Positions 24,526 through 63,151 of a stretch of 64,000 bases of DNA are shown here, in pieces (within the stretch, counting starts at the first letter, position 1; each line of letters starts with the position of its first letter). Location of the stretch: NCBI RefSeq assembly GCF_054482525.1, contig NZ_CM137006.1; one strand, 5' to 3'. The translations under genes and the position numbers were made by a program. The notes beneath the pieces are model-generated. The model saw only the letters and a list, made by a program, of their open reading frames with translations, was not told the origin of the DNA and did no database searches.

Positions 24526-26109
24526 TCACACCTCGTATTCCATCTCGCCATCCTTATGCAGCGGAATAATCTGCACCTTCTGCACGCGATGGCTTTCCAC
24601 CTGCAACGTTTTAAGCAAATAATCCCCCACCTGAACTTCTTCGCCAGGTTTTGGAATACGCTGCAAATATTCCATCAGCAGCCCGGCAATGGTGTGATAT
24701 TCACGTTTCTCGTCCAGCGGCAGCGGCACATATTGCACCAGATCTTCCAGTGGCATATGACCATTCGCCGTCCAGGAACCGTCCGCATTCTTCTGAATAT
24801 CATGGCGGGCGTCGATCTCTTCCACTTCGTTCGGTAAGTTACCGGCAATGGTTTCTGTGACGTCACTTAATGTCACAATCCCTTCCACTGAACCAAACTC
24901 ATCCACCACAAAAGCAAAGTGCGTGCGGGCATTACGGAACTGCTCCAGGGCTGGTAACAACGGCAAGGTTTCCGGGAACACCAGCGGCTGGCGAATCAAC
25001 ACCCGCAGGTTGAGCGGTTCGCCGCGCAGTGACTGTTGTAGCAGGTCGATAACGTGAACAACACCGAGCAAATCTTCCGCGTCGTCACCGTCGGTAACCA
25101 CCAGCCGCGTATGCTGATTTCGCTCCAGCAACTGGCGGATTTCCTCTTCCGGCGCGTTGAGATCGATATGCTCAATATCGTGGCGCGACGTCATAATGCT
25201 GCTGACGGTACGCTGGTTAAGATTAAGGACCCGCTCAATCATCCGCCGCTCCTGCGGATTAAAGATCTGCTGGTTACCATGATCCACCAGCATGGACGCG
25301 GTTTCGGCATCCAGTTCCGCATCTTCTTTTTGCCCGCTAAGCAGGCGCATTACCGCTTCGGTAGTCCGCTGGCGCAGTGTCTGGTTAGCGGAAAGAAAAC
25401 GTCGTCGGTTAAAGATAGCCAACTGATTGAGCGCCTCGATCATCACCGAGAAGCCAATGGCGGCGTACAGGTAGCCTTTCGGAATGACGAAGCCGAAACC
25501 TTCTGCCACCAGGCTAAAGCCAATCATCAACAGGAAGCTTAAGCAGAGAATAACGATGGTCGGGTGACTGTTAACAAATTGCGTTAACGGCTTGCTGGCC
25601 ATCAGCATCAGGCTGATAGCGATAACCACGGCGGCCATCATGACCAGTAAATGGTCGACCATCCCGACGGCGGTAATCACTGAGTCGAGTGAGAAGATGG
25701 CGTCCAGTACCACAATTTGTGTCACCACCCCCCAGAACTTCGCACCTTTGCGTTGTGTGGGGTTATTGCTGTCTTTCCCCTCCAGCCGTTCGTTCAGCTC
25801 CATCGTGGCTTTGAACAGCAGGAAGAAACCACCAAACAGCATGATTAAGTCGCGGGCGCTAAAGGTAAACGAGCGGAAGCTGAACAGCGGTTGAGTCAGG
25901 GTGACCAGCCAGGAGATTGACGCCAGCAGTAACAGGCGCATTAACATCGCCAGCAGCAGCCCGGTAACCCGTGCGCGGTCGCGCTGCTTCGGTGGTAGTT
26001 TTTCGGCGAGGATGGCAATAAAGACCAGGTTATCAATGCCGAGGACCAGTTCGATCACAATCAGCGTGATTAACCCGGCCCAGATAGACGGATCGGCAAT
26101 CCATTCCAT
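24526..26109 (-). CDS. yegH: TerC-like membrane domain plus CBS pair and CorC/HlyC C-terminal domain transporter-associated protein
   Basis: The ORF track gives 549 aa. I place the start at the ATG (reverse complement of 26107-26109, [16 protein letters not shown]...), giving 527 aa. Confidence 0.8.
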
Positions 26110-26550
26110 AGTAAGTACAAAACCTATTCGTTGTATGACAAATGTCACAATTCGATCATGGATAAATCGGGGCAAAAATGCAATGTTGCAGCACTATTTA
26201 TCTCATATTATTTGAGGTTTATAACCTCACATTATCCCTGAATTAAAAGTGGTAATAATAAAACATTATTTAAGAAATATCGCATGTGGAGACACTATAT
26301 TAAATATTGTCAACCTAAAGAAACTCCTAAAAACCATATTGAATGACACTTAATATAATTCTTAAAAATAGCCAATTGCCGAATTGTTACCTTGCCTGCT
26401 ATTCCGTTAGCTGTAACACTTCCTCCTGCATTATTGGAGAGCCAATATTCAATTACCATAATGTCACCTTATATTCGGAAGTTAATTTCCGCAATAACCC
26501 TTTCTCATCAACGACTGTATGTTGAGAGGGTTTTAAAAATTAAGCTAAAT

Positions 26551-26589
26551 CAGTGTATTGGTAGCTAAAAAGCCAGGGGCGGTAGCGTG
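26551..26589 (+). promoter_or_regulatory. JUMPstart element with ops site (GGCGGTAGCGTG) in the wza leader; RfaH-dependent antitermination signal
   Basis: CAGTGTATTGGTAGCTAAAAAGCCAGGGGCGGTAGCGTG contains the two GGTAGC half-sites and the ops core at 26578-26589, about 180 bp upstream of the wza start. Confidence 0.85.
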
Positions 26590-26767
26590 TCTGGATGCCT
26601 GAAAGACCAGTCTGAATTATTCTGTCAATAGCCTGCGGATGAAATCAATTTTTTTAGGACTGATGCCAGTTAAATTTTTATTCAATTAACTGCAAGGTAA
26701 ATGTGCATGGCGACATTGCTATTAACAGTGCACAGGATAATTACTCTGCCAAAGTGATAAATAAACA

Positions 26768-27907
26768 ATGATGAAATCCAAAATGAAATTGATGCCATTA
26801 TTGGTGTCAGTAACCTTGATAAGCGGTTGCACAGTACTTCCGGGCAGCAATATGTCGACGATGGGGAAAGACGTCATCAAACAGCAGGACGCTGATTTCG
26901 ATCTCGACAAAATGGTGAATGTTTATCCGTTGACCCCGCGCCTGATTGATCAATTACGACCACGCCCGAATGTAGCGCGCCCCAATATGACGCTGGAAAG
27001 TGAGATCGCGAATTATCAGTATCGCGTCGGGCCGGGGGACGTTCTTAATGTCACCGTCTGGGATCACCCGGAACTCACCACGCCAGCCGGTCAGTACCGC
27101 AGCTCCAGCGACACCGGCAACTGGGTACAGCCTGACGGCACTATGTTTTACCCGTATATCGGCAAGGTTCACGTGGTGGGGAAAACGCTCGCTGAAATCC
27201 GCAGTGATATTACCGGGCGCTTAGCGACGTACATCGCTGACCCGCAGGTGGACGTTAATATCGCCGCCTTCCGCTCGCAAAAAGCCTATATCTCCGGTCA
27301 GGTGAATAAATCCGGTCAACAGGCCATCACCAACGTGCCACTGACCATTCTTGATGCCATCAACGCCGCAGGTGGCCTGACCGACACCGCTGACTGGCGC
27401 AACGTAGTGCTAACACACAATGGTCGTGAAGAGCGCATTTCTTTGCAGGCGCTGATGCAAAACGGCGACCTCAATCAGAACCGACTGCTTTACCCCGGCG
27501 ATATTCTCTACGTGCCGCGTAATGATGATCTGAAAGTGTTTGTGATGGGTGAAGTGAAGAAACAGAGCACCCTGAAAATGGACTTTAGCGGCATGACCCT
27601 GACTGAAGCCCTTGGTAATGCTGAAGGCATCGACATGACCACCTCCAACGCCAGCGGCATCTTTGTCATTCGTCCGCTGAAAGGCGAGGGTGGGCGTAAC
27701 GGCAAGATTGCCAATATCTACCAGCTGGATATGTCCGATGCCACGTCGCTGGTGATGGCGACAGAATTCCGCCTGCAACCTTATGACGTGGTGTATGTCA
27801 CCACCGCACCGGTTTCCCGCTGGAACCGTCTGATCAATCAGTTGCTGCCAACTATTAGCGGTGTCCGTTACATGACGGATACAGCCAGCGACATTCATAA
27901 CTGGTAA
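26768..27907 (+). CDS. wza: Outer-membrane polysaccharide export lipoprotein Wza
   Basis: 379-aa ORF with a lipoprotein signal ([21 protein letters not shown]); first gene of the colanic acid cluster. Confidence 0.93.
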
Positions 27908-31944: not shown

Positions 31945-33158
31945 ATATTCTGCAATTTAATGTGCGACTGGCGGAAGGCGGGGCAGCAGGTGTGGCGTTA
32001 GATCTCCACCAGCGCGCGCTGCAACAGGGGCTGGCGTCACATTTTGTCTACGGCTACGGCAAAGGCGGCAAAGAGAGCGTCAGCCATCAAAACTATCCGC
32101 AGGTCATCAAACATACGCCGCGGATGACCGCGATGGCGAACATTGCGTTGTTTCGTCTGTTTAATCGCGATCTGTTTGGCAATTTCAATGAGTTATATCG
32201 CACTATTACCCGCACACCGGGTCCGGTGGTCCTGCATTTTCATGTGCTGCACAGCTACTGGTTGAATCTAAAGAACGTAGTGCGTTTTTGTGAAAAGGTA
32301 AAAAAACATAAACCGGATATCACACTGGTCTGGACGCTGCACGACCACTGGAGCGTTACCGGACGCTGCGCCTTTACCGACGGTTGCGAAGGCTGGAAAA
32401 CGGGCTGCCAGAAATGCCCGACCTTAAATAATTATCCGCCGGTGAAGATTGATCGCGCACACCAACTGGTGGCGGGTAAACGCCAGTTATTCCGCGAGAT
32501 GCTGGCACTGGGCTGTCAGTTTATTTCCCCCAGCCAGCATGTGGCTGATGCTTTCAATAGTCTGTACGGTCCAGGGCGTTGCCGGATTATCAATAATGGC
32601 ATTGATATGGCAACCGAAGCGATTCTGGCGGACTTGCCTCCGGTGCGCGAAACCCAGGGCAAGCCGAAAATCGCGGTGGTGGCGCATGATCTGCGTTACG
32701 ACGGCAAAACTAATCAGCAACTGGTGCGTGAGATGATGGCGCTGGGCGACAAAATCGAACTGCATACCTTTGGTAAGTTCTCGCCGTTCACCGCTGGCAA
32801 CGTGGTTAATCACGGCTTTGAAACTGACAAGCGCAAGTTGATGAGCGCGCTCAATCAGATGGATGCGCTGGTATTCAGTTCTCGCGTCGATAACTACCCA
32901 CTGATTTTGTGTGAGGCGTTATCAATTGGCGTGCCGGTGATTGCCACCCATAGCGATGCGGCGAGGGAAGTGCTGCAAAAATCCGGCGGTAAAACCGTCA
33001 GCGAAGAAGACGTGCTGCAACTGGTGCAGTTAAGCAAACCGGAAATCGCGCAGGCGATATTTGGTACCACGCTGGCTGAGTTCAGCCAACGCAGCCGCGC
33101 CGCCTACAGTGGACAACAGATGCTGGAGGAGTATGTCAACTTCTATCAGAATCTGTAG
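31941..33158 (+). CDS. wcaC: Colanic acid biosynthesis glycosyltransferase WcaC (GT4)
   Basis: 405-aa ORF; position and length match wcaC. Confidence 0.88.
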   Translation: MNILQFNVRLAEGGAAGVALDLHQRALQQGLASHFVYGYGKGGKESVSHQNYPQVIKHTPRMTAMANIALFRLFNRDLFGNFNELYRTITRTPGPVVLHFHVLHSYWLNLKNVVRFCEKVKKHKPDITLVWTLHDHWSVTGRCAFTDGCEGWKTGCQKCPTLNNYPPVKIDRAHQLVAGKRQLFREMLALGCQFISPSQHVADAFNSLYGPGRCRIINNGIDMATEAILADLPPVRETQGKPKIAVVAHDLRYDGKTNQQLVREMMALGDKIELHTFGKFSPFTAGNVVNHGFETDKRKLMSALNQMDALVFSSRVDNYPLILCEALSIGVPVIATHSDAAREVLQKSGGKTVSEEDVLQLVQLSKPEIAQAIFGTTLAEFSQRSRAAYSGQQMLEEYVNFYQNL

Positions 33159-34350
33159 CTACCTGCTGCTGCCGCTGATCTACCTGCTGGTTAACGTCAA
33201 AATCGCCCAGCTTGGCGAAAGTTTCCCCATCACCATCGTCACTTTTTTACCTGTCTTGTTACTGCTGTTTTTAGAACGCATCAGCGTTAAAAAATTGATG
33301 ATTGCCTTAGGGATTGGCGCGGGACTCACGGCGTTTAACTACCTGTTTGGTCAGTCGTTGGATGCCAGTAAATACGTCACTTCAACCATGCTGTTTGTCT
33401 ATATTGTGATCATTATTGGCATGGTGTGGAGTATTCGCTTTAAAACGATTTCGCCCCACAACCACCGCAAGATATTACGCTTTTTTTATCTGGTGGTCGG
33501 GTTGGTGGTGGCGCTGGCGGCGGTGGAGATGGCGCAAATTATCCTCACCGGCGGCAGCAGTATTATGGAATCGATTTCGAAATATCTGATTTACAGCAAC
33601 AGCTATGTGCTGAATTTCATCAAATTCGGCGGCAAGCGCACGACAGCACTTTATTTCGAACCGGCATTTTTCGCTCTGGCATTAATCTCAATTTGGCTCA
33701 GCATCAAACAGTTTGGTATCAAAACCCCTAAAACCGATGCTATGATTCTCGCAGGGATAATATTATCCGGATCGTTTTCAGGGGTTATGACCTTTATCCT
33801 GTTTTATTTGCTGGAGTGGGCATTTCAATATCTGAATAAAGAGGCGATTAAGAAAAAGTTACCGTTAGCATTGATTTCTCTGGCTGTATTCCTGGTTGGT
33901 GTGGTAATCGCGTTTCCTTATATTTCCACCCGTCTGGGCGATTTAGGTACGGAAGGATCGTCATCATATTATCGTATTGTCGGTCCGCTGGTGATGGTCG
34001 GTTATTCTTTGACCCATATTGACGGTGTAGTCAGATTTGGCTCACTTTATGAATATGTCGCATCATTCGGAATATTTAACGGTGCGGATGTCGGAAAAAC
34101 CATAGACAATGGTTTGTATCTGCTGATTATTTATTTTTCCTGGTTCGCAGTGTTTTTATCGCTGTGGTACATGGGGAAAGTGATAAAAATGATGATCAAC
34201 GCTTTTGGTGATAACCGCAATTTTCGCGTGCAATTATATCTTTTTACTCCGGTATCGCTGTTTTTTACCGGTTCGATATTTAGCCCGGAATATGCATTTT
34301 TAATCGTCTGTCCGTTTATTTTGCGAAAAGCGTTAAATATTACGAGGTAA
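33133..34350 (+). CDS. wcaD: Colanic acid polymerase WcaD
   Basis: I place the start at the ATG at 33133 ([19 protein letters not shown]...), giving 405 aa and overlapping the wcaC end; polytopic membrane protein. Confidence 0.85.
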
Positions 34351-34354
34351 GAAC

Positions 34355-35101
34355 ATGTTGCTTAGCATAATCACTGTCGCGTTTCGTAACCTCGCAGGGA
34401 TAGTCAAAACACATGCCTCGCTGGCGCATCTGGCGCAGGCGGACGATATCAGCTTCGAATGGATTGTTGTCGATGGCGGTTCCAATGACGGCACCCGTGA
34501 GTACCTGGAAAATCTCAATGGTATCTATAACCTACGCTTTGTCAGCGAACCAGATAACGGTATCTACGACGCCATGAACAAGGGCATTGCGATGGCACAA
34601 GGCAAGTTCGCGTTGTTTCTCAACTCAGGTGATATTTTTCATCAGGATGCCGCAAATTTTGTCCGTAAGTTAAAAGTACAAAAAGATAACGTGATGATCA
34701 CTGGCGATGCGCTGCTGGATTTTGGCGACGGGCATAAAATTAAACGTAGCGCCAAACCGGGCTGGTATATTTATCACAGCCTGCCCGCCAGTCATCAGGC
34801 GATATTTTTCCCGGTATCCGGCTTGAAAAAATGGCGTTATGACCTGGAATATAAAGTTTCTTCTGATTACGCGCTGGCGGCTAAAATGTATAAAGCTGGT
34901 TATGCATTTAGAAAACTCAATGGCCTGGTGTCTGAATTTTCTATGGGTGGAGTATCTACCACCAATAATATGGAATTGTGTGCTGACGCCAAAAAAGTCC
35001 AACGACAAATATTACATGTGCCTGGCTTCTGGACTGAATTATCCTGGCATTTACGCCAACGTACTACCTCAAAGACGAAAGCCTTATATAACAAAAGCTG
35101 A
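34355..35101 (+). CDS. wcaE: Colanic acid biosynthesis glycosyltransferase WcaE (GT2)
   Basis: 248-aa ORF with [10 protein letters not shown] and [11 protein letters not shown] motifs. Confidence 0.88.
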
Positions 35102-35116
35102 ATATAAGGGAAAACG

Positions 35117-35665
35117 ATGCAGAATTTAAGTGGTTTCTCGGTACCGAAAGGGTTCCGGGGCGGCAACGCTATTAAAGTGCAATTGTGGTGGGCAGTACAG
35201 GCAACATTATTTGCCTGGTCGCCACAAGTATTGTATCGCTGGCGGGCATTTTTATTACTTTTATTCGGGGCAAAAATAGGAAAAAACGTAGTTATTCGTC
35301 CGTCAGTAAAAATTACCTATCCGTGGAAATTAACTTTAGGTGATTACGCGTGGGTCGGCGATGAGGTCAATTTATATACCCTCGGTGAAATAACCATTGG
35401 CGCACATTCGGTGATATCGCAAAAAAGTTATTTATGCACCGGGAGCCACGACCATGCAAGTCAACATTTCACCATTAACGCCACGCCTATTGTGATTGGC
35501 GAGAAATGCTGGCTGGCGACAGATGTTTTTGTTGCCCCTGGCGTCACGATCGGCGACGGCACCGTCGTGGGTGCACGAAGCAGTGTTTTTAAATCGCTTC
35601 CGGCAAATGTGGTTTGCCGGGGGAATCCCGCAGTGGTGATACGCGAACGCGTTGAAACTGAATAA
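35117..35665 (+). CDS. wcaF: Colanic acid biosynthesis acetyltransferase WcaF (hexapeptide-repeat)
   Basis: 182-aa ORF with hexapeptide repeats. Confidence 0.88.
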   Translation: MQNLSGFSVPKGFRGGNAIKVQLWWAVQATLFAWSPQVLYRWRAFLLLLFGAKIGKNVVIRPSVKITYPWKLTLGDYAWVGDEVNLYTLGEITIGAHSVISQKSYLCTGSHDHASQHFTINATPIVIGEKCWLATDVFVAPGVTIGDGTVVGARSSVFKSLPANVVCRGNPAVVIRERVETE

Positions 35666-35690: not shown

Positions 35691-36812
35691 ATGTCAAAAG
35701 TCGCTCTCATCACCGGTGTAACCGGACAAGACGGTTCTTACCTGGCAGAGTTTCTGCTGGAAAAAGGTTACGAGGTGCATGGTATTAAGCGTCGTGCATC
35801 GTCATTCAACACCGAGCGCGTGGATCACATTTATCAGGATCCGCACACCTGCAACCCGAAATTCCATCTGCATTATGGCGACCTGAGTGATACCTCCAAC
35901 CTGACGCGCATTTTGCGTGAAGTACAGCCGGATGAAGTGTACAACCTGGGTGCAATGAGCCACGTTGCAGTTTCTTTTGAGTCACCGGAATATACCGCAG
36001 ACGTTGATGCGATGGGTACGCTGCGCCTGCTGGAGGCGATCCGCTTCCTCGGTCTGGAAAAGAAAACCCGTTTCTATCAGGCTTCCACCTCTGAACTGTA
36101 CGGTCTGGTGCAGGAAATTCCGCAGAAAGAAACCACGCCGTTCTATCCACGCTCTCCGTATGCGGTCGCCAAACTGTATGCCTACTGGATCACCGTTAAC
36201 TACCGCGAATCCTACGGCATGTATGCCTGTAACGGTATTCTCTTCAACCATGAATCCCCGCGCCGCGGCGAAACCTTCGTTACCCGCAAAATCACCCGCG
36301 CAATCGCCAACATCGCTCAGGGGCTGGAGTCGTGCCTGTACCTCGGCAATATGGATTCCCTGCGCGACTGGGGCCATGCCAAAGACTACGTAAAAATGCA
36401 GTGGATGATGCTGCAACAGGAACAGCCGGAAGATTTCGTTATCGCGACCGGCGTTCAGTACTCCGTGCGTCAGTTCGTGGAAATGGCGGCAGCACAGCTG
36501 GGTATCAAACTGCGCTTTGAAGGCACGGGCGTTGAAGAGAAGGGCATTGTGGTTTCCGTCACCGGGCATGACGCGCCAGGCGTTAAACCGGGCGATGTGA
36601 TTATCGCCGTTGATCCGCGCTACTTCCGTCCGGCTGAAGTTGAAACGCTGCTCGGTGACCCGACCAAAGCGCACGAAAAACTGGGCTGGAAACCGGAAAT
36701 CACCCTCAGAGAGATGGTGTCTGAAATGGTGGCTAATGACCTCGAAGCGGCGAAAAAACACTCTCTGCTGAAATCTCACGGCTACGACGTGGCGATCGCG
36801 CTGGAGTCATAA
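35691..36812 (+). CDS. gmd: GDP-mannose 4,6-dehydratase
   Basis: 373-aa ORF with a Rossmann N-terminus ([17 protein letters not shown]) and the short-chain dehydrogenase catalytic region. Confidence 0.95.
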
Positions 36813-36814
36813 GC

Positions 36815-37780
36815 ATGAGTAAACAACGCATTTTTATTGCTGGCCATCGCGGGATGGTCGGTTCCGCCATCAGGCGGCAGCTCGAACAGCGCGGTGATGT
36901 AGAGCTGGTATTACGCACCCGCGATGAACTGAACCTGCTGGACAGCCGCGCCGTGCATGATTTCTTTGCCAGCGAACGTATTGACCAGGTCTATCTGGCG
37001 GCGGCGAAAGTGGGCGGCATTGTTGCCAACAACACCTATCCGGCGGATTTCATCTACCAGAACATGATGATTGAGAGCAACATCATTCACGCCGCGCATC
37101 AGAACGACGTGAACAAACTGCTGTTTCTCGGATCGTCCTGTATCTACCCGAAACTGGCAAAACAGCCGATGGCAGAAAGCGAGTTATTGCAGGGTACGCT
37201 GGAGCCGACCAACGAGCCTTACGCCATTGCCAAAATCGCCGGGATCAAACTGTGCGAATCTTACAACCGCCAGTACGGACGCGATTACCGCTCAGTCATG
37301 CCGACCAACCTGTATGGCCCGCATGACAACTTCCACCCGAGTAATTCGCATGTGATCCCTGCATTGCTGCGTCGCTTCCACGAGGCGACGGCACAGAATG
37401 CACCGGACGTGGTGGTATGGGGCAGCGGTACACCGATGCGTGAATTCCTGCACGTCGATGATATGGCGGCGGCGAGCATTCATGTCATGGAGCTGGCGCA
37501 TGAAGTCTGGCTGGAGAACACCCAGCCGATGCTGTCGCACATTAACGTCGGCACGGACGTTGACTGCACTATCCGCGAGCTGGCTCAAACCATCGCCAAA
37601 GTGGTGGGTTACAAAGGTCGGGTGGTTTTTGATGCCAGCAAACCGGATGGTACGCCGCGCAAACTGCTGGATGTGACGCGCCTGCATCAGCTTGGCTGGT
37701 ATCACGAAATCTCACTGGAAGCGGGGCTTGCCAGCACTTACCAGTGGTTCCTTCAGAATCAAGACCGCTTTCGGGGGTAA
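36815..37780 (+). CDS. fcl: GDP-L-fucose synthase (GDP-4-keto-6-deoxymannose 3,5-epimerase/4-reductase)
   Basis: 321-aa ORF starting [19 protein letters not shown]... Confidence 0.95.
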
Positions 37781-37782
37781 TG

Positions 37783-38262
37783 ATGTTTTTACGTCAGGAA
37801 GACTTTGCCACGGTAGTGCGCTCCACACCGCTTGTCTCTCTCGACTTTATTGTCGAGAACAGTCGCGGCGAGTTTCTGCTTGGCAAAAGAACCAACCGCC
37901 CGGCGCAGGGTTACTGGTTTGTGCCGGGAGGGCGCGTGCAGAAAGACGAAACGCTGGAAGCCGCATTTGAGCGGCTGACGATGGCGGAACTGGGGCTGCG
38001 TCTGCCGATAACAGCAGGCCAGTTTTACGGTGTCTGGCAGCACTTTTATGACGATAACTTCTCCGGCACGGATTTCACCACTCACTATGTGGTGCTCGGT
38101 TTTCGCTTCAGAGTCGCGGAAGAAGAGCTGTTACTGCCGGATGAGCAGCATGACGATTACCGCTGGCTGACGCCGGACGCGTTGCTCGCCAGTGACAATG
38201 TTCACGCTAACAGCCGCGCCTATTTTCTCGCTGAGAAGCGTGCCGGAGTACCCGGATTATGA
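37783..38262 (+). CDS. gmm: GDP-mannose mannosyl hydrolase (Nudix)
   Basis: I place the start at the ATG at 37783 (MFLRQEDF...), giving 159 aa; Nudix-like fold. Confidence 0.85.
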
Positions 38263-39482
38263 AAATACTGGTCTACGGCATTAACTACTCGCCGGAGTTA
38301 ACCGGCATCGGCAAATACACCGGAGAGATGGTGGAATGGCTTGCGGCACAAGGTCATGAGGTGCGGGTCATTACCGCACCGCCTTACTACCCGCAGTGGC
38401 AGGTGGGCGAGAACTATTCCGCCTGGCGGTACAAACGAGAAGAGGGGGCCGCTACGGTGTGGCGCTGCCCGCTGTACGTGCCAAAACAGCCGAGCACCCT
38501 GAAACGCCTGTTGCATCTCGGCAGTTTTGCCGTCAGCAGTTTTTTCCCGTTGATGGCGCAACGTCGCTGGAAGCCGGATCGCATTATCGGCGTAGTGCCA
38601 ACGCTGTTTTGCACGCCGGGAATGCGCCTGCTGGCGAAACTCTCTGGCGCGCGTACCGTGCTGCATATTCAGGATTACGAAGTGGATGCCATGCTGGGGC
38701 TGGGCCTTGCCGGAAAAGGCAAAGGCGGCAAAGTGGCACAGCTGGCAACGGCGTTCGAACGTAGCGGACTGCATAACGTCGATAACGTCTCCACGATTTC
38801 GCGTTCGATGATGAATAAAGCCATCGAAAAAGGCGTGGCGGCAGAAAACGTCATTTTCTTCCCCAACTGGTCAGAAATTGCCCGTTTTCAGCATGTCGCA
38901 GACGCCGATGTTGATGCCCTTCGTAACCAGCTTGGCCTGCCGGATAACAAAAAAATCATTCTTTACTCCGGCAATATTGGTGAAAAGCAGGGGCTGGAAA
39001 ACGTTATTGAAGCAGCCGAACGTCTGCGCGATGAACCGCTGATTTTTGCCATTGTTGGGCAGGGCGGCGGCAAAGCGCGGCTTGAAAAAATGGCGCAGCA
39101 GCGTGGACTGCACAACATGCAATTTTTTCCGCTGCAATCGTATGACGCTTTACCCGCACTGCTGAAGATGGGCGATTGCCATCTGGTGGTGCAAAAACGC
39201 GGCGCGGCAGATGCCGTATTGCCGTCGAAACTGACCAATATTCTGGCGGTAGGCGGTAACGCGGTGATTACCGCAGAGGCCCACACAGAACTGGGGCAGC
39301 TTTGCGAAACCTTTCCGGGCATTGCGGTTTGCGTAGAACCGGAATCGGTCGAGGCGCTGGTGGCGGGGATCCGTCAGGCGCTCCTGCTGCCCAAACACAA
39401 CACGGTGGCACGTGAATATGCCGAACGCACGCTCGATAAAGAGAACGTGTTACGTCAATTTATAAATGATATTCGGGGATAA
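38259..39482 (+). CDS. wcaI: Colanic acid biosynthesis glycosyltransferase WcaI (GT4)
   Basis: 407-aa ORF; position and length match wcaI. Confidence 0.88.
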
Positions 39483-39484
39483 TT

Positions 39485-40921
39485 ATGGCGCAGTCGAAAC
39501 TCTATCCAGTTGTGATGGCAGGTGGCTCCGGTAGCCGCTTATGGCCGCTTTCCCGCGTACTTTACCCCAAGCAGTTTTTATGCCTGAAAGGCGATCTCAC
39601 CATGCTGCAAACCACCATCTGCCGCCTGAACGGCGTGGAGTGCGAAAGCCCGGTGGTGATTTGCAATGAGCAGCACCGCTTTATTGTCGCGGAACAGCTG
39701 CGTCAACTGAACAAACTCACCGAGAACATTATTCTCGAACCGGCAGGGCGTAACACGGCACCTGCCATTGCGCTGGCGGCGCTGGCGGCAAAACGTCATA
39801 GCCCGGAGAGCGACCCGTTAATGCTGGTCTTGGCGGCGGATCATGTGATTGCCGATGAAGATGCGTTCCGCGCCGCCGTGCGTAACGCCATGCCATATGC
39901 CGAAGCGGGCAAGCTGGTGACCTTCGGCATTGTGCCGGATCTCCCTGAAACCGGTTATGGCTATATTCGTCGCGGTGAAGTGTCTGCTGGTGAGCAGGAT
40001 ACGGTGGCCTTTGAAGTGGCGCAGTTTGTCGAAAAACCGAATCTGGAAACCGCTCAGGCCTATGTGGCAAGCGGCGAATATTACTGGAACAGCGGTATGT
40101 TCCTGTTCCGCGCCGGACGCTATCTAGAAGAACTGAAAAAGTATCGTCCGGATATTCTCGATGCCTGTGAAAAAGCGATGAGCGCCGTCGATCCGGATCT
40201 CGATTTTATTCGCGTGGATGAAGAAGCGTTTCTGGCCTGCCCGGAAGAGTCGGTGGATTACGCGGTCATGGAACGTACGGCAGATGCCGTTGTGGTGCCG
40301 ATGGATGCGGGCTGGAGCGATGTCGGCTCCTGGTCCTCTTTATGGGAGATCAGCGCCCACACCGCCGAGGGCAACGTTTGCCACGGCGATGTGATTAATC
40401 ACAAAACTGAAAACAGCTATGTGTACGCCGAATCTGGTCTGGTCACCACCGTCGGGGTGAAAGATCTGGTGGTGGTGCAGACCAAAGATGCGGTGCTGAT
40501 TGCAGACCGTAACGCGGTACAGGATGTGAAAAAAGTGGTCGAGCAGATCAAAGCCGACGGTCGCCATGAGCATCGGGTGCATCGCGAAGTGTATCGTCCG
40601 TGGGGCAAATATGACTCTATCGACGCGGGCGACCGCTACCAGGTGAAACGCATCACCGTGAAACCGGGCGAGGGCTTGTCGGTACAGATGCACCATCACC
40701 GCGCGGAACACTGGGTGGTTGTCGCGGGAACGGCAAAAGTCACTATCGACGGTGATATCAAACTGCTTGGTGAAAACGAGTCCATTTATATTCCGCTGGG
40801 GGCGACGCACTGCCTGGAAAACCCGGGGAAAATTCCGCTCGATTTAATTGAAGTGCGCTCCGGGTCTTACCTCGAAGAGGATGATGTGGTGCGCTTCGCG
40901 GATCGCTACGGGCGGGTGTAG
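39485..40921 (+). CDS. cpsB: Mannose-1-phosphate guanylyltransferase (colanic acid copy)
   Basis: 478-aa ORF with the nucleotidyltransferase N-terminus ([16 protein letters not shown]) and a C-terminal cupin domain. Confidence 0.93.
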
Positions 40922-41022
40922 CAGTTGAATAATCAACCGGATTAATTCTCCGGTAAATAACGACAAAAACAAAATTGGCCGTTTCGGTCAGGGCCAACTA
41001 TTGCCTGAAAAAGGGTAACGAC

Positions 41023-42393
41023 ATGAAAAAATTAACCTGCTTTAAAGTCTACGATATTCGCGGGAAATTAGGCGAAGAACTGAATGAAGATATTGCCTGG
41101 CGTATTGGTCGCGCCTATGGCGAATTTCTTAAACCGAAAACCATTGTTTTAGGCGGTGATGTCCGCCTCACCAGCGAAACCTTAAAACTGGCGCTGGCAA
41201 AAGGTTTACAGGATGCGGGCGTCGATGTGCTGGATATTGGCATGTCCGGCACCGAAGAGATCTATTTCGCCACGTTCCATCTCAGCGTGGATGGCGGCAT
41301 TGAAGTTACCGCCAGCCATAACCCGATGGATTACAACGGCATGAAGCTGGTGCGCGAAGGGGCTCGCCCGATCAGCGGCGATACCGGACTGCGCGACGTC
41401 CAGCGTCTGGCAGAAGCCAATGACTTCCCTCCTGTCGATGAAACCAAACGCGGTCGCTATCAGCAAATCAATCTGCGTGACGCTTACGTTGATCACCTGT
41501 TCGGTTATATCAACGTCAAAAACCTCACGCCGCTCAAGCTGGTGATCAACTCCGGGAACGGCGCGGCGGGGCCGGTGGTGGACGCCATTGAAGCCCGCTT
41601 TAAAGCCCTCGGCGCACCCGTGGAATTGATCAAAGTGCACAACACGCCGGACGGGAATTTCCCCAACGGTATTCCTAACCCGCTGCTGCCGGAATGTCGC
41701 GACGACACCCGCAATGCGGTCATCAAACACGGCGCGGATATGGGCATTGCCTTTGATGGCGATTTTGACCGCTGTTTCCTGTTTGACGAAAAAGGGCAGT
41801 TTATCGAGGGCTACTACATTGTTGGCCTGCTGGCAGAAGCGTTCCTCGAAAAAAATCCCGGCGCGAAGATCATCCACGATCCACGTCTCTCCTGGAACAC
41901 CGTTGATGTGGTGACTGCCGCAGGCGGCACCCCGGTAATGTCGAAAACCGGACACGCCTTTATTAAAGAACGTATGCGCAAGGAAGACGCCATCTACGGT
42001 GGCGAAATGAGCGCCCACCATTACTTCCGTGATTTCGCTTACTGCGACAGCGGCATGATCCCGTGGCTGCTGGTCGCCGAACTGGTGTGCCTGAAAGGGA
42101 AAACGCTGGGCGAACTGGTGCGCGACCGGATGGCAGCGTTTCCGGCAAGCGGTGAGATCAACAGCAAACTGGCGCACCCCGTTGAGGCGATTAATCGCGT
42201 CGAACAGCATTTTAGCCGTGAGGCGCTGGCGGTGGATCGCACCGATGGCATCAGCATGACCTTTGCCGACTGGCGCTTTAACCTGCGCTCCTCCAACACC
42301 GAACCGGTGGTGCGGTTGAATGTGGAATCGCGCGGCGATGTACCGCTGATGGAAGCGCGAACGCGAACTCTGCTGACGTTGCTGAACGAGTAA
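41023..42393 (+). CDS. cpsG: Phosphomannomutase (colanic acid copy)
   Basis: I place the start at the ATG at 41023 ([14 protein letters not shown]...), giving 456 aa. Phosphoserine loop TASHNP and metal-binding FDGDFDR are present. Confidence 0.93.
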
Positions 42394-47901: not shown

Positions 47902-49296
47902 ATGCCATTTAAAAAACTCTCCCGACGCACCTTCCTGACGGCAAGCTCGGCGCTTGCCTTCCTCCATACCCCTTTCGCTCGCGCACTTCCCGACCAACAG
48001 AGCGTTAACATTAACGACTACAACCCTCACGACTGGATCGCCTCATTTAAACAAGCCTTCAGCGAAGGGCAAACAGTCGTCGTGCCTGCCGGATTGGTTT
48101 GCGACAATATCAACACCGGCATCTTCATTCCTCCTGGCAAAACGTTACACATCCTTGGAAGCCTGCGCGGCAACGGCAGAGGGCGATTTGTTTTACAGGA
48201 CGGCAGCCAGGTGACAGGGGAGGAGGGCGGCAGTATGCATAACATCACCCTGGATGTGCGTGGTTCTGACTGCACCATCAAAGGGTTGGCGATGAGCGGC
48301 TTTGGCCCGGTAACGCAGATTTATATCGGCGGCAAAAACAAACGGGTCATGCGCAACCTGACCATCGATAACTTGACCGTTAGCCACGCTAATTACGCCA
48401 TTTTACGCCAGGGATTTCATAACCAGATTATCGGTGCCAACATCACCAACTGTAAGTTCAGCGACTTACAGGGCGACGCCATTGAATGGAACGTGGCAAT
48501 TAACGACAGTGATATTTTGATTTCCGACCACATCATCGAGCGCATCAACTGTACTAACGGAAAAATCAACTGGGGCATTGGCATAGGCCTTGCGGGAAGT
48601 ACCTACAATAACAATTACCCGGAAGACCAGACAGTGAAAAATTTTGTTGTGGCGAATATCACGGGATCGGATTGTCGGCAGTTGATACATGTTGAAAATG
48701 GTAAACATTTTGTTATTCGTAATATCAAAGCCCGCAATATCACACCGGATTTCAGTAAGAAAGCAGGTATTGATAACGCCACAGTTGCTATTTATGGTTG
48801 TGACAACTTTGTGATTGATAATATTGAAATGATTAATAGTGCCGGGATGTTAATCGGCTATGGGGTAATTAAAGGCAAATATCTCTCGATACCGCAGAAT
48901 TTCCGGGTGAATAATATTCAACTGGATAATACTCATCTTGCTTATAAATTGCGCGGCATTCAAATCTCCGCCGGGAATGCTGTCTCCTTTGTGGCGCTGA
49001 CTAACATTGAGATGAAGCGTGCGTCGCTGGAGTTACACAACAAACCGCAACATCTTTTTATGCGTAATATCAATGTGATGCAGGAATCCTCAGTTGGACC
49101 CGCATTGAGCATGAACTTCGACATGCGCAAAGACGTACGAGGTGTCTTTATGGCGAAAAAAGAAACACTGCTATCTCTTGCAAATGTTCATGCGGTGAAT
49201 GAAAGAGGGCAAAGCTCTGTCGATATCGACAGGATTAATCACCATATTGTTAATGTGGAAAAGATTAACTTTAGATTGCCGGAACGGAGGGAGTAG
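47902..49296 (+). CDS. wcaM: Colanic acid biosynthesis protein WcaM
   Basis: 464-aa ORF with a Tat/Sec-like N-terminus ([21 protein letters not shown]); last gene of the colanic acid cluster. Confidence 0.88.
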
Positions 49297-49453
49297 ATTT
49301 GCGACCATTCATAAACTTACTGGATATAATGTTCTAAAAGATTATAATCCTCACACTAACTGTTAAAGCTGGGGCTGGGCAGCATTGACTACTCAGGGAA
49401 GGTACTCATCTTTATCTTGTGTTTCTTACGTAACAACCAGACTAAAGTGATTT

Positions 49454-50449
49454 ATGAACGATAACGTTTTGCTCATAGGAGCTTCCGGATTCGTAGGAAC
49501 CCGACTACTTGAAACGGCAATTGCTGACTTTAATATCAAGAACCTGGACAAACAGCAGAGCCACTTTTATCCAGAAATCACACAGATTGGCGATGTTCGT
49601 GATCAACAGACACTCGACCAGGCGTTAGCCGGTTTTGACACTGTTGTACTACTGGCAGCGGAACACCGCGATGATGTCAGTCCTACTTCTCTCTATTATG
49701 ATGTCAACGTTCAGGGTACCCGCAATGTACTGGCGGCCATGGAAAAAAATGGCGTTAAAAATATCATCTTTACCAGTTCCGTTGCTGTTTATGGTTTGAA
49801 CAAACACAACCCTGACGAAAACCATCCACACGACCCTTTCAACCACTACGGCAAAAGTAAGTGGCAGGCAGAGGAGGTGCTGCGTGAATGGTATAACAAA
49901 GCACCAACAGAACGTTCATTAACCATCATCCGTCCTACCGTTATCTTCGGTGAACGCAACCGCGGTAACGTCTATAACTTGCTGAAACAGATCGCTGGCG
50001 GCAAGTTTATGATGGTGGGCGCAGGGACTAACTATAAGTCCATGGCTTATGTTGGAAACATTGTTGAGTTTATTAAGTACAAACTGAAGAATGTTGCCGC
50101 AGGTTATGAGGTTTATAACTACGTTGATAAGCCAGACCTGAACATGAACCAGTTGGTTGCTGAAGTTGAACAAAGCCTGAACAAAAAGATCCCTTCTATG
50201 CACTTGCCTTACCCACTAGGAATGCTGGGTGGATATTGCTTTGATATCCTGAGCAAAATTACGGGCAAAAAATACGCTGTCAGCTCTGTGCGCGTGAAAA
50301 AATTCTGCGCAACTACACAGTTTGACGCAACGAAAGTGCATTCTTCAGGTTTTGTGGCACCGTATACGCTGTCGCAAGGTCTGGATCGAACTCTGCAGTA
50401 TGAATTCGTCCATGCCAAAAAAGACGACATAACGTTTGTTTCTGAGTAA
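49454..50449 (+). CDS. gne: NAD-dependent epimerase of the Gne/Gnu type (UDP-GalNAc or GlcNAc-PP-undecaprenol 4-epimerase family)
   Basis: 331-aa ORF with a Rossmann N-terminus (LLIGASGFVGTRLLE), located between wcaM and galF. Assignment rests on the fold and this characteristic position. Confidence 0.7.
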   Translation: MNDNVLLIGASGFVGTRLLETAIADFNIKNLDKQQSHFYPEITQIGDVRDQQTLDQALAGFDTVVLLAAEHRDDVSPTSLYYDVNVQGTRNVLAAMEKNGVKNIIFTSSVAVYGLNKHNPDENHPHDPFNHYGKSKWQAEEVLREWYNKAPTERSLTIIRPTVIFGERNRGNVYNLLKQIAGGKFMMVGAGTNYKSMAYVGNIVEFIKYKLKNVAAGYEVYNYVDKPDLNMNQLVAEVEQSLNKKIPSMHLPYPLGMLGGYCFDILSKITGKKYAVSSVRVKKFCATTQFDATKVHSSGFVAPYTLSQGLDRTLQYEFVHAKKDDITFVSE

Positions 50450-51838: not shown

Positions 51839-51877
51839 CAGTACGCTGGTAGCTGTTGAGCCAGGGGCGGTAGCGTG
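51839..51877 (+). promoter_or_regulatory. JUMPstart element with ops site (GGCGGTAGCGTG) in the O-antigen cluster leader
   Basis: CAGTACGCTGGTAGCTGTTGAGCCAGGGGCGGTAGCGTG has the same architecture as the wza-leader element; ops core at 51866-51877, about 80 bp upstream of wzx. Confidence 0.85.
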
Positions 51878-51957: not shown

Positions 51958-53193
51958 ATGTTAAAAAACATCATCTATTTATTAAGCGTTCAAGGTGGCA
52001 ATTATATATTTCCATTGGTCACACTGCCTTATCTTGTCAGGATCCTTGAACCTACAGGATACGGGATATATGGGTATAGTTTTGCTGTGGTCCAATATTT
52101 TATATTATTTATTGATTACGGATTTAACTACTCAGCGCCCAAAATCATATCAATATCAAGGGAAAATACTGATTCCATAAGTAAAGTTTTTTGGAATGTA
52201 ACGTTTATCAAAATAATTGCAGCATCTCTTGGTTTGTTAATTATTTATTTAATTTCGGAATTGAATATCATTGATTACCAAATTAAATTTATCATTCTTG
52301 CATACATATCTGTCGTAGGAAATTTAATATATCCAGTATGGTTTTTTCAAGGGCTGGAAAAAATGTTAGGAATAGCGATAAGTATGTTTTCCGCACGCTT
52401 ACTTACACTATGTTTAACATTTTTATTGGTTAAAAGTGAAAAGGATCTTGGTATAGCGATAACAATACAATCATCAATAACAGTTATTGCAGGTATAATA
52501 TCTACATATTTTTTATTTTCTCTTAAAAAAATAATATGGGTACCACCATCCTTATCCAAAATGAAAGAGTTAATTTATGATGGATGGCATTACTTCATTT
52601 CCTCTGCAGCAATAAGCCTTTATACTACTAGTTCAACAATAATATTAGGTGCATTATCAGGAACAACTGCAGTGGGATATTTTATCGCTGCAGATAAAAT
52701 TAGGCTTGCACTACAAGGCGTTATTGGTCCTATAACCCAAGCTGTTTTTCCTAGAGTAACTTATATAATGAAGGATAATCATGACGATGGACTATTATTA
52801 GCCAGGAAAGTGTTTCGATGGCAATTTTCACTGATGTTCGTACTTTCCATATTTCTTTACTTTTTTGCAGACGATATAATTTTAATCATGTATGGAAAAA
52901 CGTATCATGAATCTTTAGAAATACTCAAGGTTTTAGCTTTTACTCCAGCAATAGTTACGGTAAGTAATTATATTGCAATTTTAGTAATGATCCCTATTGG
53001 TATGAAAAAAGAATTTACAAAAATTATTACTACCAGTGGATTAATAGGCCTACTGATAATTACTTATTTGACTAATGAATACTCAGGAGTTGGTACAGCA
53101 ATAGGAGTTATTTCAACTGAGTTTATAATAATGGCGAGATTTTACTTTTTGATTAAGAAAACAAATAAATTAAATAATTTAAATTTATTGTAG
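51958..53193 (+). CDS. wzx: O-antigen flippase Wzx
   Basis: 411-aa AT-rich polytopic membrane ORF with a PST-family N-terminus (...IFPLVTLPYLVRILEPTGYGIYG...). Confidence 0.8.
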   Translation: MLKNIIYLLSVQGGNYIFPLVTLPYLVRILEPTGYGIYGYSFAVVQYFILFIDYGFNYSAPKIISISRENTDSISKVFWNVTFIKIIAASLGLLIIYLISELNIIDYQIKFIILAYISVVGNLIYPVWFFQGLEKMLGIAISMFSARLLTLCLTFLLVKSEKDLGIAITIQSSITVIAGIISTYFLFSLKKIIWVPPSLSKMKELIYDGWHYFISSAAISLYTTSSTIILGALSGTTAVGYFIAADKIRLALQGVIGPITQAVFPRVTYIMKDNHDDGLLLARKVFRWQFSLMFVLSIFLYFFADDIILIMYGKTYHESLEILKVLAFTPAIVTVSNYIAILVMIPIGMKKEFTKIITTSGLIGLLIITYLTNEYSGVGTAIGVISTEFIIMARFYFLIKKTNKLNNLNLL

Positions 53194-53201
53194 GGCTAAC
53201 A

Positions 53202-53927
53202 ATGAATAAACCAACTTTAACAATAGTTACCGTTGTGTACAATGGCGAAATGTATATCGAAGATACTATAAAAAGTGTCTTATCACAAAACTGCAATGAT
53301 GACATTGAATATATTATAATTGATGGTGCATCAACGGATAATACTCTAAATATTGTTAATTCTTACAAAAATGAAATTTCATATATCATTTCTGAAAATG
53401 ATAATGGTATATATGATGCAATGAATAAAGGTGTGTTAAAAGCATCTGGAAATTATATAGGATTTATAAACGCTGATGATTTTTATAATAAAGATGTATT
53501 ATGTCAAGTAATAAAAGTAATGAAAGAAAATAAATATGATGTTATTTATGGAAATATGTCTTTGGTAGAGGCTGATAGCTTGGATGTTATTCAGGTCCGG
53601 AGGCCTAAAGACTGGAAACTACATATAGATATGAATTTAAGCCATCCGGCCACATTTATTAGAAAAGATATCCACAGAGAAAATTTATTTAATACTAGCT
53701 ATAAAATTGCTTCTGATTATGATCTTTTGCTAAAATTGAAGAAACAAGGTTATATCTTTCATTATATTGATAAAAATATCTCTTCGATGAGAAATGCCGG
53801 CCTTAGCGCTAAAAATGTAAAATTAGCATTGGAGGAAGCGAGACAAATCCGAAAGAAAAGAAACGGGAAATTATATGCGGCGTTAGCAGATATTTACCTA
53901 TTTATGAGAAAAGTTATAAAAAGATGA
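53202..53927 (+). CDS. O-antigen glycosyltransferase, GT2 family (WcaE-like)
   Basis: 241-aa ORF with IIIDGASTDNT and [11 protein letters not shown] motifs shared with WcaE. Confidence 0.75.
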   Translation: MNKPTLTIVTVVYNGEMYIEDTIKSVLSQNCNDDIEYIIIDGASTDNTLNIVNSYKNEISYIISENDNGIYDAMNKGVLKASGNYIGFINADDFYNKDVLCQVIKVMKENKYDVIYGNMSLVEADSLDVIQVRRPKDWKLHIDMNLSHPATFIRKDIHRENLFNTSYKIASDYDLLLKLKKQGYIFHYIDKNISSMRNAGLSAKNVKLALEEARQIRKKRNGKLYAALADIYLFMRKVIKR

Positions 53928-55159
53928 TTAATAGAAACATAAAAATTAGTGCTTCATTTATTTCAATAATTTATTTGCCTTTTGCTTTATTATTAGCAAT
54001 GATTGAAATGATTAATGGGGCCAGATGGAGTGTTTATGTATGTTCATTTATGCTAGGGGTACTAGCATTTTTGTTAATACCTTATGAAAATTGGGATTTG
54101 ACTAGGCATTATGAAACATATTTATATGTTAGTCAAACATCACTAAACAAAGTTTTTGAAAATAGTGACAATAGATATATTACAATAAATACTGTTATTT
54201 ATTTATTTAAATCTTTAGGAATAAAAAAAGAATTTTTACCTTTTTTTTCAACATTTTTATCATATATTTTTTATTTTAATATATATGTTAATCACATTAA
54301 AAAATACAATCCGGAATTATCTCATAGATGTATATATTTATATATTCTAATAAGCGTAATCCCATTTTTTGCTATAGCTAGTTCATTGCGGCAATATCTT
54401 GCATTTAGTATTATGCTTTATATGATCATACAGTATTTCACCAGTGAAAATAATAGGTATAAGTCACAAAAAATTATATTCTCTGCAATTATTTCATGTT
54501 GTATTCATCCCAGCGCAATACTATTGCTAGGTGTTTTTTTTGTTAGCAAATTAATAAGACTTAACAAAACAATATTGTATTTAATAATATTAGTTCTAAT
54601 CCTTAACCATGATGGATTAATATCTTCTTTGCTATTTCAATTGATTAGGCCATTATTGGAAAGCTTAGGTTTTTACTTTCCCGAATATATGGACTCTGTA
54701 ACCATAGGCATAAGCAATAGCTTGCTGAGCACTAATGAATATATCTTGAATAAGATCATATTACCGTCAGTGTTTTTTATTTTTACTTTTATCTATTTAA
54801 TTTTATTTAATAAAAAAATGACGAGGCAAGAGTCACAAATCAAAAATTTTTGCAGTTTACTTCTTTTGCTGATATGCCTTTTATCGTTATCGCCTGATTT
54901 ATTTTATCGATTTTCCATTTTCTGGGTGTTATTATATAGTTATATATTTTTCTCCTACGATATTAATAAAATTAGCAAACTATGTAAGCATCTGATCTTC
55001 TTAATACTCATTACCGCATGTTCAATCATAAATTTGGCACAGGCAAATATGGGTAAAGATATTATTTATGTGTCTTGGTGCGATATATTGTATAAGCCCT
55101 CATTATTCCTATTCAATAAAGAAGTTAAATCAGCAGAATATATAAGAGTGAGTCAATAA
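53924..55159 (+). CDS. wzy: O-antigen polymerase Wzy
   Basis: 411-aa very hydrophobic, AT-rich ORF with many predicted membrane segments and no recognisable catalytic motif, as is typical of Wzy. Confidence 0.7.
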   Translation: MINRNIKISASFISIIYLPFALLLAMIEMINGARWSVYVCSFMLGVLAFLLIPYENWDLTRHYETYLYVSQTSLNKVFENSDNRYITINTVIYLFKSLGIKKEFLPFFSTFLSYIFYFNIYVNHIKKYNPELSHRCIYLYILISVIPFFAIASSLRQYLAFSIMLYMIIQYFTSENNRYKSQKIIFSAIISCCIHPSAILLLGVFFVSKLIRLNKTILYLIILVLILNHDGLISSLLFQLIRPLLESLGFYFPEYMDSVTIGISNSLLSTNEYILNKIILPSVFFIFTFIYLILFNKKMTRQESQIKNFCSLLLLLICLLSLSPDLFYRFSIFWVLLYSYIFFSYDINKISKLCKHLIFLILITACSIINLAQANMGKDIIYVSWCDILYKPSLFLFNKEVKSAEYIRVSQ

Positions 55160-55160
55160 A

Positions 55161-56228: not shown

Positions 56229-56248
56229 GGTATTGGAGCTATTAAAGT

Positions 56249-57265: not shown

Positions 57266-57333
57266 ATTGAAACAATTATAATCATCCATTTCATTGCTTA
57301 CTGTATTGTTATCTATATATATGAAAACAAAAA

Positions 57334-58341: not shown

Positions 58342-58351
58342 GAGGTTATTT

Positions 58352-59473: not shown

Positions 59474-59476
59474 AGT

Positions 59477-60442: not shown

Positions 60443-60444
60443 TA

Positions 60445-60900: not shown

Positions 60901-60911
60901 AGGTTATTTAT

Positions 60912-62297: not shown

Positions 62298-62380
62298 AAT
62301 GATGCTGGATACTAATGCAACATTATTATTCGTAATGCTGTACTGACGTTATTTAATTATGATTATTATTGGATGTTAAA

Positions 62381-63127: not shown

Positions 63128-63151
63128 TTTTATTATTGGTAAGGTTTTTAT

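Follow-up and report, generated by a model that had tools for sequence, protein, structure and literature searches.

The 64,000-nucleotide stretch of DNA analysed here (the window; one strand of contig NZ_CM137006.1 from NCBI RefSeq assembly GCF_054482525.1) carries two gene sets for the de novo synthesis of GDP-L-fucose, one in the colanic-acid operon and one in an O-antigen operon, and the two sets appear to have different histories. A probability of roughly 0.85 is assigned to the overall explanation that the window is the wza-to-manB stretch of the chromosome of an Escherichia coli of serogroup O11, with two separate long operons. The colanic-acid set would be the vertically inherited enterobacterial version, with normal-to-high guanine-plus-cytosine (GC) content, and the O11 set would be part of a horizontally acquired cassette whose nearest sampled relatives are the O cluster of E. 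coli ECO2 and a locus of Grimontia hollisae. The duplication of the pathway is the ordinary, already documented layout of the E. coli O11 chromosome, and the O11 cluster has been published (Li et al. 2011, as cited in PMC7685785). What is mildly new is the likely non-orthologous displacement of the cassette's phosphomannomutase gene, manB, together with fixed 38-nucleotide (nt) locus-specific tails on a pool of sequence shared by manB and its colanic-acid counterpart, cpsG.

The chromosome of E. coli PCN033 shows 100% identity to positions 51958-63200 of the window, and this segment is matched over at least 80% of its length by 65 complete genomes of the species. The wzx and wzy genes of the best (100%) matches are annotated as O11 family O-antigen flippase and polymerase, and these O11-type genes lie between galF and gnd. 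The window runs collinear with the annotated region of PCN033 (L001), from which it departs at 5 nt out of 30,043. The order in the window is colanic-acid operon, gnu, galF and O11 O-antigen operon, the end of the window falling within manB, and the open reading frames (ORFs) from 30 kb onward form an unbroken plus-strand series. Upstream of galF is a colanic-acid cluster (wza-wzb-wzc-wcaABCDEF-gmd-fcl-gmm-wcaI-cpsB-cpsG-wcaJ-wzxC-wcaKLM) whose ORF map is collinear with the annotation of PCN033 by the NCBI Prokaryotic Genome Annotation Pipeline (PGAP). Up to ~48 kb the GC content is mostly 0.52-0.57, with lower values of 0.43-0.47 in wcaD-wcaF; from 51.5 to 63 kb it is down to 0.26-0.39, and the last kilobase of the window is again richer in GC.

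A de novo GDP-L-fucose gene set is present in both clusters, all ten proteins scoring above the curated NCBIfam cut-offs for their families (Gmd, Fcl, Gmm, GMP/PMI, CpsG). On TIGR01479 (cut-off 373 bits) the colanic-acid ManC reaches 811 bits and the O11 copy 741 bits; on the CpsB-specific model NF012004 the O11 copy falls below the cut-off (670 versus 859 bits). No manA gene occurs in either cluster of the window, and manA usually lies outside O-antigen clusters (PMC7685785). The O11 cluster contains fcl and has no annotated per, col or rmd genes. A first-pass annotation of the same DNA had described two complete GDP-L-fucose pathways in one window, in the orders gmd-fcl-gmm-wcaI-manC-manB (colanic acid) and gmd-fcl-gmm-manC-GT2-manB (O11, 58352-64000; GT2 being a family-2 glycosyltransferase gene). 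Both orders are borne out by the ORF map and PGAP, and both sets lie where they had been placed. The second pathway is complete in PCN033 rather than in the window, which cuts its manB after 283 of 456 codons, and the span given for the first (35691-40921) takes in the colanic-acid genes from gmd to cpsB and ends just before cpsG. The genes of the two sets, with the glycosyltransferase gene embedded in the second, are as follows.

35691-36812, plus strand: colanic-acid gmd (GC 0.541; 587 bits on TIGR01472, cut-off 415; annotated by PGAP in PCN033)
36815-37780, plus strand: colanic-acid fcl/wcaG, GDP-L-fucose synthase (549 bits on NF047922, cut-off 500; PGAP in PCN033)
37783-38262, plus strand: colanic-acid gmm/wcaH, GDP-mannose mannosyl hydrolase, a Nudix enzyme; ATG start 2 nt past the fcl stop (326 bits on NF011963, cut-off 146; PGAP in PCN033)
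39485-40921, plus strand: cpsB/manC, mannose-1-phosphate guanylyltransferase of the colanic-acid operon (1116 bits on NF012004, cut-off 859; PGAP in PCN033)
41023-42393, plus strand: cpsG/manB, phosphomannomutase of the colanic-acid operon and upstream copy of a 1.33-kb direct repeat (D1, spacing 22129; 1053 bits on NF011943, cut-off 801)
58352-59473, plus strand: O11 gmd (GC 0.389; 585 bits on TIGR01472, cut-off 415)
59477-60442, plus strand: O11 fcl (538 bits on NF047922, cut-off 500)
60445-60900, plus strand: O11 gmm, with a TTG start as called by PGAP (195 bits on NF011963, cut-off 146, profile positions 3-148)
60912-62297, plus strand: O11 manC, starting at ATG 60912 and not at the ORF-opening GTG 60897 (741 bits on TIGR01479; PGAP start; orthologues begin MLLPVVMAGG)
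62381-63127, plus strand: GT2 gene between manC and manB, part of the AT-rich cassette (PGAP annotation; syntenic in O43, 95% amino acid identity, ECO2, 52%, and Grimontia hollisae, 53%)
63152-64000, plus strand: O11 cpsG-type manB, truncated at the end of the window and forming the downstream copy of the direct repeat (GC 0.542; the full gene, L001 29195-30565, scores 1053 bits on NF011943)

The contrast between the two sets is carried by the pairwise comparison of their genes, given below as amino acid (aa) identity, nt identity and GC at third codon positions (GC3).

Gmd pair: 83.1% aa, 69.5% nt; GC3 0.628 (colanic acid) versus 0.249 (O11)
Fcl pair: 70.9% aa, 62.7% nt; GC3 0.677 versus 0.233
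Gmm pair: 48.6% aa, 50.9% nt; GC3 0.631 versus 0.303
ManC pair: 58.8% aa, 57.4% nt; GC3 0.637 versus 0.232
ManB pair: 98.9% aa, 96.5% nt over the 849 nt in the window; GC3 0.654 versus 0.625

Overall GC is 0.54-0.56 in the colanic-acid genes, 0.35-0.39 in the four O11 genes and 0.54 in O11 manB. Third-position identity is 29-35% in the Gmd, Fcl, Gmm and ManC pairs and 90% in the ManB pair. The Nei-Gojobori (NG86) estimate of synonymous divergence (dS) is undefined for the four diverged pairs, which is read as saturation (the LWL85 method likewise gave no estimate), and their non-synonymous divergence (dN) is 0.13-0.51; for manB, dS is 0.16 and dN 0.014. It is well supported that the O11 copies of gmd, fcl, gmm and manC diverged from the colanic-acid genes long ago and are not recent duplicates, since synonymous sites are saturated, composition is opposite, and the trees place the O11 copies beside Grimontia and other O-antigen cassettes. 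The first-pass annotation had reached the same view of these four AT-rich genes. Its description of the proteins of the two sets as highly similar holds for Gmd, with up to 65 aa identical in a row, and reasonably for Fcl, but not for Gmm (49%) or ManC (59%). Copying of the colanic-acid genes into the O-antigen locus by a recent duplication, tandem or segmental, would be compatible with the same gmd-fcl-gmm order, the same 2-3 nt spacings in both sets and the 96.5% identity of the manB copies. It is nevertheless extremely improbable: like nt identity and composition over all pairs, the pattern that had been named as pointing to recent tandem duplication, was not found (51-70% nt identity in the four saturated pairs against 96.5% in manB), the suggested comparison of GC3 gave 0.23-0.30 for the O11 copies against 0.61-0.68 for the colanic-acid copies with manB alone alike, and the O11 copies group with Grimontia and other cassettes rather than with the colanic-acid copies.

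The relatives of the AT-rich block point outside the enterobacterial colanic-acid lineage. When the O11 gmd-manC block was compared with 5,426 E. coli genomes by sensitive blastn, identity of at least 99% was found only in 65 O11 genomes; it matches a small number of other O clusters at 78-99%, and the ubiquitous colanic-acid genes at ~68%. ECO2 carries gmd-fcl-gmm-manC-GT2-manB in the same order at 75-81% nt and 76-91% aa identity to O11, with an AT-rich manB of 474 aa that is of another type (24-25% aa and 39% nt identity to the cpsG type). Amongst the matches listed from 100,044 species-representative genomes, the best to O11 ManC is that of Grimontia hollisae (Vibrionaceae) at 68%, and all other listed matches, enterobacterial CpsB relatives included, are at 51-60%. 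Grimontia hollisae CIP 101886 (L004 3424-9570), the closest non-E. coli relative among the matches listed, shares the six-gene synteny gmd-fcl-gmm-manC-GT2-manB with the ECO2 cassette at a GC of 0.36-0.44, and its manB is 61% identical in aa to that of ECO2. In neighbour-joining trees of the four proteins, a check that had been proposed at first pass, O11, O43, ECO2 and Grimontia form a clade with bootstrap values of 99 (Gmd), 92 (Fcl), 52 (Gmm) and 100 (ManC), and the E. coli colanic-acid proteins cluster with those of Enterobacter sp. Ag1 and Mangrovibacter (84-96% aa for Gmd, Fcl and ManC, 67-69% for Gmm), so that the O11 copies fall outside the enterobacterial colanic-acid clade. The view that O11 gmd-fcl-gmm-manC-GT2 are xenologues, probably acquired horizontally as an AT-rich cassette, is well supported by these sequence comparisons.

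The manB gene stands apart from the block that precedes it. At its start GC3 jumps from 0.26 to 0.63 within 25 nt, and the 110 nt upstream of the manB and cpsG starts are unrelated to each other. Over nt 1-1292 the full O11 manB of PCN033 and the resident cpsG share 96.8% identity, which then collapses (~1292-1333). The gene is thus of the cpsG type, with a body more than 95% identical in nt to cpsG, host-like GC among AT-rich neighbours, and sharp junctions with unrelated flanks. Against cpsG in ~4,600 E. coli genomes, O11 manB is 95.4-97.7% identical, with at least 99% in only 56 records, and its best non-O11 match is not the resident cpsG; the resident cpsG is itself 95.7-97.2% identical to the cpsG alleles of other strains. 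In a set of 13 copies (cpsG and manB of O6 (two strains), O7, O11 (two strains) and O157, plus O43 manB), the bodies are 95.6-97.8% identical pairwise, except that the two O6 manB copies are 99.4% identical to each other. The copies do not cluster by locus, and a grouping by genome is seen only as a slightly raised value (97.7%) in one O6 strain. Within this matrix O11 manB is 96.8% identical to its own cpsG and 96.1-96.8% to the cpsG and manB of other strains. Recent conversion from the resident cpsG is therefore not evident, O11 manB being no closer to its own cpsG than to other copies in either the 13-copy matrix or the ~4,600 genomes. The last 38 nt (L001 30527-30565), by comparison, are locus-specific, with one tail in every cpsG, a second in the manB of O6, O7, O11 and O43, and a third in that of O157. 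A second O11 strain, strain 48 (L084, NZ_CP166879), is 99.3-99.9% identical to PCN033 from wzx to GT2, and 96.3% in manB, 95.4% in galF and 96.7% in gnd. Since the two strains diverge in manB as they do in galF and gnd, manB shares the evolution of the recombining flanks, not that of the serogroup-specific block.

The first-pass annotation had proposed that only manB has been homogenised. It is correct that manB alone resembles its colanic-acid counterpart; however, the gene was probably replaced by the native cpsG type and is not a homogenised orthologue, and no recent intragenomic conversion is visible. We lean slightly towards a non-orthologous displacement shared by O11 and O43, in which a Vibrionaceae-like six-gene cassette would have lost its 474-aa manB on being spliced onto the E. 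coli manB-gnd flank, cpsG and the O-locus manB would constitute a single two-locus recombining pool with fixed 38-nt 3' ends, and manB would act as a crossover arm for O-antigen switching. Displacement is likelier than conversion because the 474-aa manB of ECO2 and Grimontia is too diverged from the cpsG type (24% aa, 39% nt) for homologous recombination. The AT-rich block would have been joined to an existing E. coli manB-gnd arm that keeps exchanging sequence with cpsG. The manB body (~nt 1-1333) would belong to one species-wide pool with differences of 2-4% whatever the locus, strain or serogroup; the last 38 nt and the downstream spacer would be specific to the O-antigen locus and common to O6, O7 and O43 manB; and the gene would behave, together with gnd, as flanking recombining E. 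coli DNA instead of as part of the serogroup-specific block.

Alternatively, the cassette may have brought in a diverged cpsG-type manB of its own, which was then overwritten from the resident cpsG up to nt ~1333, leaving an AT-rich 3' tail. This classical form of homogenisation seems unlikely, though not negligibly so. In its favour, the AT-rich final 38 nt of the O-locus manB code for a C-terminus that still resembles that of CpsG (EEKTKLILALLNK), the published interpretation of O157 invokes replacement by the colanic-acid gene and gene conversion (PMC3158064), and manB-cpsG repeats recombine in the laboratory (PMC4173774). However, the same tail occurs in O6, O7, O11 and O43 manB despite unrelated upstream O-antigen genes, which argues that it belongs to the locus and not to the cassette; the manB of the closest cassette relatives is only 24% identical in aa to cpsG and is not a target for conversion; and O11 manB shows no greater similarity to the resident cpsG (96.8%) than to the cpsG of other strains. 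The suggestion that the high identity of manB reflects strong purifying selection or protein convergence, rather than shared recent ancestry or recombination, draws on the 98.9% aa identity of ManB and on the conserved nature of phosphomannomutases. It can practically be dismissed given a third-position identity of 90%, a dS of only 0.16 beside neighbouring pairs that are saturated, the abrupt GC3 switch at the start of the gene, and the functional, unrelated manB type in the sister cassette of ECO2. Several considerations weigh against displacement and, more broadly, against the history proposed here. The 474-aa manB type that underlies displacement was found in two relatives only, an ancestral cassette may have carried an AT-rich cpsG-type manB that was later converted, and the AT-rich 38-nt tail could be a remnant of such a converted gene. 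The trees are simple neighbour-joining trees of few taxa with weak support for Gmm (52), and closer donors of ManC than Grimontia hollisae (68%) may exist beyond the matches listed. Finally, the O11 repeat unit is inferred to contain L-fucose from the presence of gmd and fcl, the lack of per or col genes and the title of Li et al. 2011.

Two candidate sources of O11 manB sequence were tried and rejected. A donor cpsG allele, defined as one in a non-O11 genome at least 99% identical to O11 manB, was not present among the records listed, the highest listed non-O11 value being 97.7%. Derivation of the 3' tail from an ECO2-type manB was ruled out, as the two do not align (local score 19) and the tail is common to O6, O7 and O43 manB. 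Amongst other features of these loci, the spacer between cpsB and cpsG (40922-41022) is 101 nt long here, and 192 nt long in those strains of O6 and O7 that were compared; indels at this spacer have been linked to repetitive extragenic palindromic (REP) elements (PMC3158064). In O11 strain 48, colanic-acid cpsG and gmd carry annotated frameshifts that mark them as pseudogenes (L084 22897-24266, 28568-29688) and the O-antigen copies are intact; the frameshifts could be real decay tolerated owing to the second set, or sequencing error. The O-antigen cluster of ECO2 (NZ_CP090339; L002 2723-15932) has no O-family names from PGAP for wzx or wzy, and an IS1 lies between its manB and gnd.

The TTG start of O11 gmm, also noted at first pass, is supported by several lines of evidence. 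The fcl stop occupies 60440-60442 and the TTG lies at 60445, that is, 2 nt past the stop, the same arrangement as in the colanic-acid operon, and an AGGAG Shine-Dalgarno sequence (60434-60438) is located 6 nt 5' of the TTG. An in-frame ATG first occurs past the Nudix box; TTG is the only canonical start for a functional Gmm, because the other canonical starts lose this box. The alignment to the family profile starts at residue 5 of the O11 protein, and PGAP calls the same codon. The ECO2 orthologue has an ATG at exactly this position (MNKRLE...) and O43 has a TTG.

The features of the two operons outside the paired genes include the following.

26551-26589, plus strand: JUMPStart element of 39 nt with ops (GGCGGTAGCGTG, 26578-26589), upstream of wza at the head of the colanic-acid operon (pattern search and sequence)
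38259-39482, plus strand: wcaI, colanic-acid fucosyltransferase gene, between gmm and cpsB (PGAP annotation of the near-identical PCN033 region)
51839-51877, plus strand: second JUMPStart/ops element of 39 nt (ops 51866-51877), at the head of the O11 O-antigen operon (pattern search and sequence)
51958-58341, plus strand: O11-specific genes wzx, GT2, wzy, GT (glycosyltransferase), galE/gne and GT4 (family-4 glycosyltransferase) (GC 0.26-0.36; 100% match to O11-annotated clusters)

JUMPStart/ops elements mediate RfaH-dependent antitermination, and the colanic-acid genes are Rcs-induced under envelope stress while the O antigen is constitutive. Counts of promoter-like and terminator-like sites inside the O module are at or below the shuffle expectation and give no sign of internal transcription units; since there is no such excess, each GDP-fucose set is likely transcribed together with the genes of the glycosyltransferases that use its product. 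Separate copies would let the constitutive O antigen draw GDP-fucose apart from the stress-induced colanic-acid operon, and this difference in regulation may account for the presence of dedicated supply genes alongside a fucose-containing O antigen. The first JUMPStart/ops element lies in a low-GC (0.39) intergenic stretch (~25500-27000). Within the colanic-acid operon, where GC is otherwise 0.51-0.56, it is lower in wcaD, wcaE and wcaF (0.43-0.48; 33133-35665) and also in wcaM and the adjoining gnu (0.45-0.47; 47902-50449), so that the "native" operon is itself compositionally mosaic. A gnu-type gene for a GlcNAc-PP-undecaprenol 4-epimerase is located upstream of galF (49454-50449) and a galE/gne-type epimerase gene inside the O11 cluster (56249-57265); the two suggest that the repeat unit is GalNAc-initiated and draws on UDP-Gal or UDP-GalNAc as well.

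The two manB-type genes form direct repeats of 1.33 kb with a spacing of 22,129 nt, and uninterrupted identity extends for up to 98 nt in the portion within the window. Repeats of this kind lie on either side of a segment with the distal colanic-acid genes and the entire O-antigen cluster, and recombination between manB and cpsG has produced deletions in the O14 type strain (PMC7685785) and in 10 of 12 lines of the long-term evolution experiment (PMC4173774). The 22-kb interval is thus deletion-prone, and its loss would give rough strains without the distal colanic-acid genes. With copies that are 96-97% identical, manB and cpsG reads or assemblies may be confused or collapsed, and in O-typing and recombination analyses manB should be treated as flank and not as a serogroup marker. 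The locus shows cleanly how O-antigen clusters combine AT-rich modules of lateral origin with native flanking genes into a mosaic, and matters little beyond correct annotation.

The closest known systems share parts of this arrangement. Low GC is described for O-antigen clusters in general (PMC7685785), and GDP-sugar modules of low GC that were acquired laterally and carry the man genes at their 3' end are known from Salmonella enterica (manB/manC; PMC3715488); a relationship between E. coli O11 and S. enterica O16 has also been reported (Li et al. 2011, cited in PMC7685785). E. coli O157 has two GDP-mannose/GDP-fucose sets on one chromosome, as here (gmd-fcl-gmm/wbdQ-manC-manB plus the colanic-acid set; the same layout is seen in L088), and its O-antigen manB, more than 95% identical to cpsG, has been explained by replacement by the colanic-acid gene and gene conversion (PMC3158064). 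It differs in that its Gmd, Fcl and Gmm are sister to the enterobacterial colanic-acid clade, with ManC on the same side of the neighbour-joining trees, whereas the O11 set goes with Grimontia; it also lacks a GT2 gene between manC and manB and has another manB 3' tail. The 3' module of O43 (strain PEC408, L003), GT4-gmd-fcl-gmm(TTG)-manC-GT2-manB(cpsG type), is that of O11, with like gene lengths, manB tail and spacers, but wzx, wzy and the glycosyltransferase genes differ. Identity between O43 and O11 rises along the module, from 82% in gmd through 86% in fcl, 91% in gmm, 96.4% in manC and 96.8% in GT2 to ~97% in manB/gnd (L003 7204-13371 versus L001 24395-30565), which suggests repeated recombination trimming a divergent central region; a divergence gradient next to serogroup-specific regions has been described by Reeves and colleagues (PMC3715488). 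Lastly, the manB-cpsG deletion systems (the O14 type strain, and E. coli B in the long-term evolution experiment) involve the same pair of ~96%-identical direct repeats, but in the window both copies and everything between them are intact.

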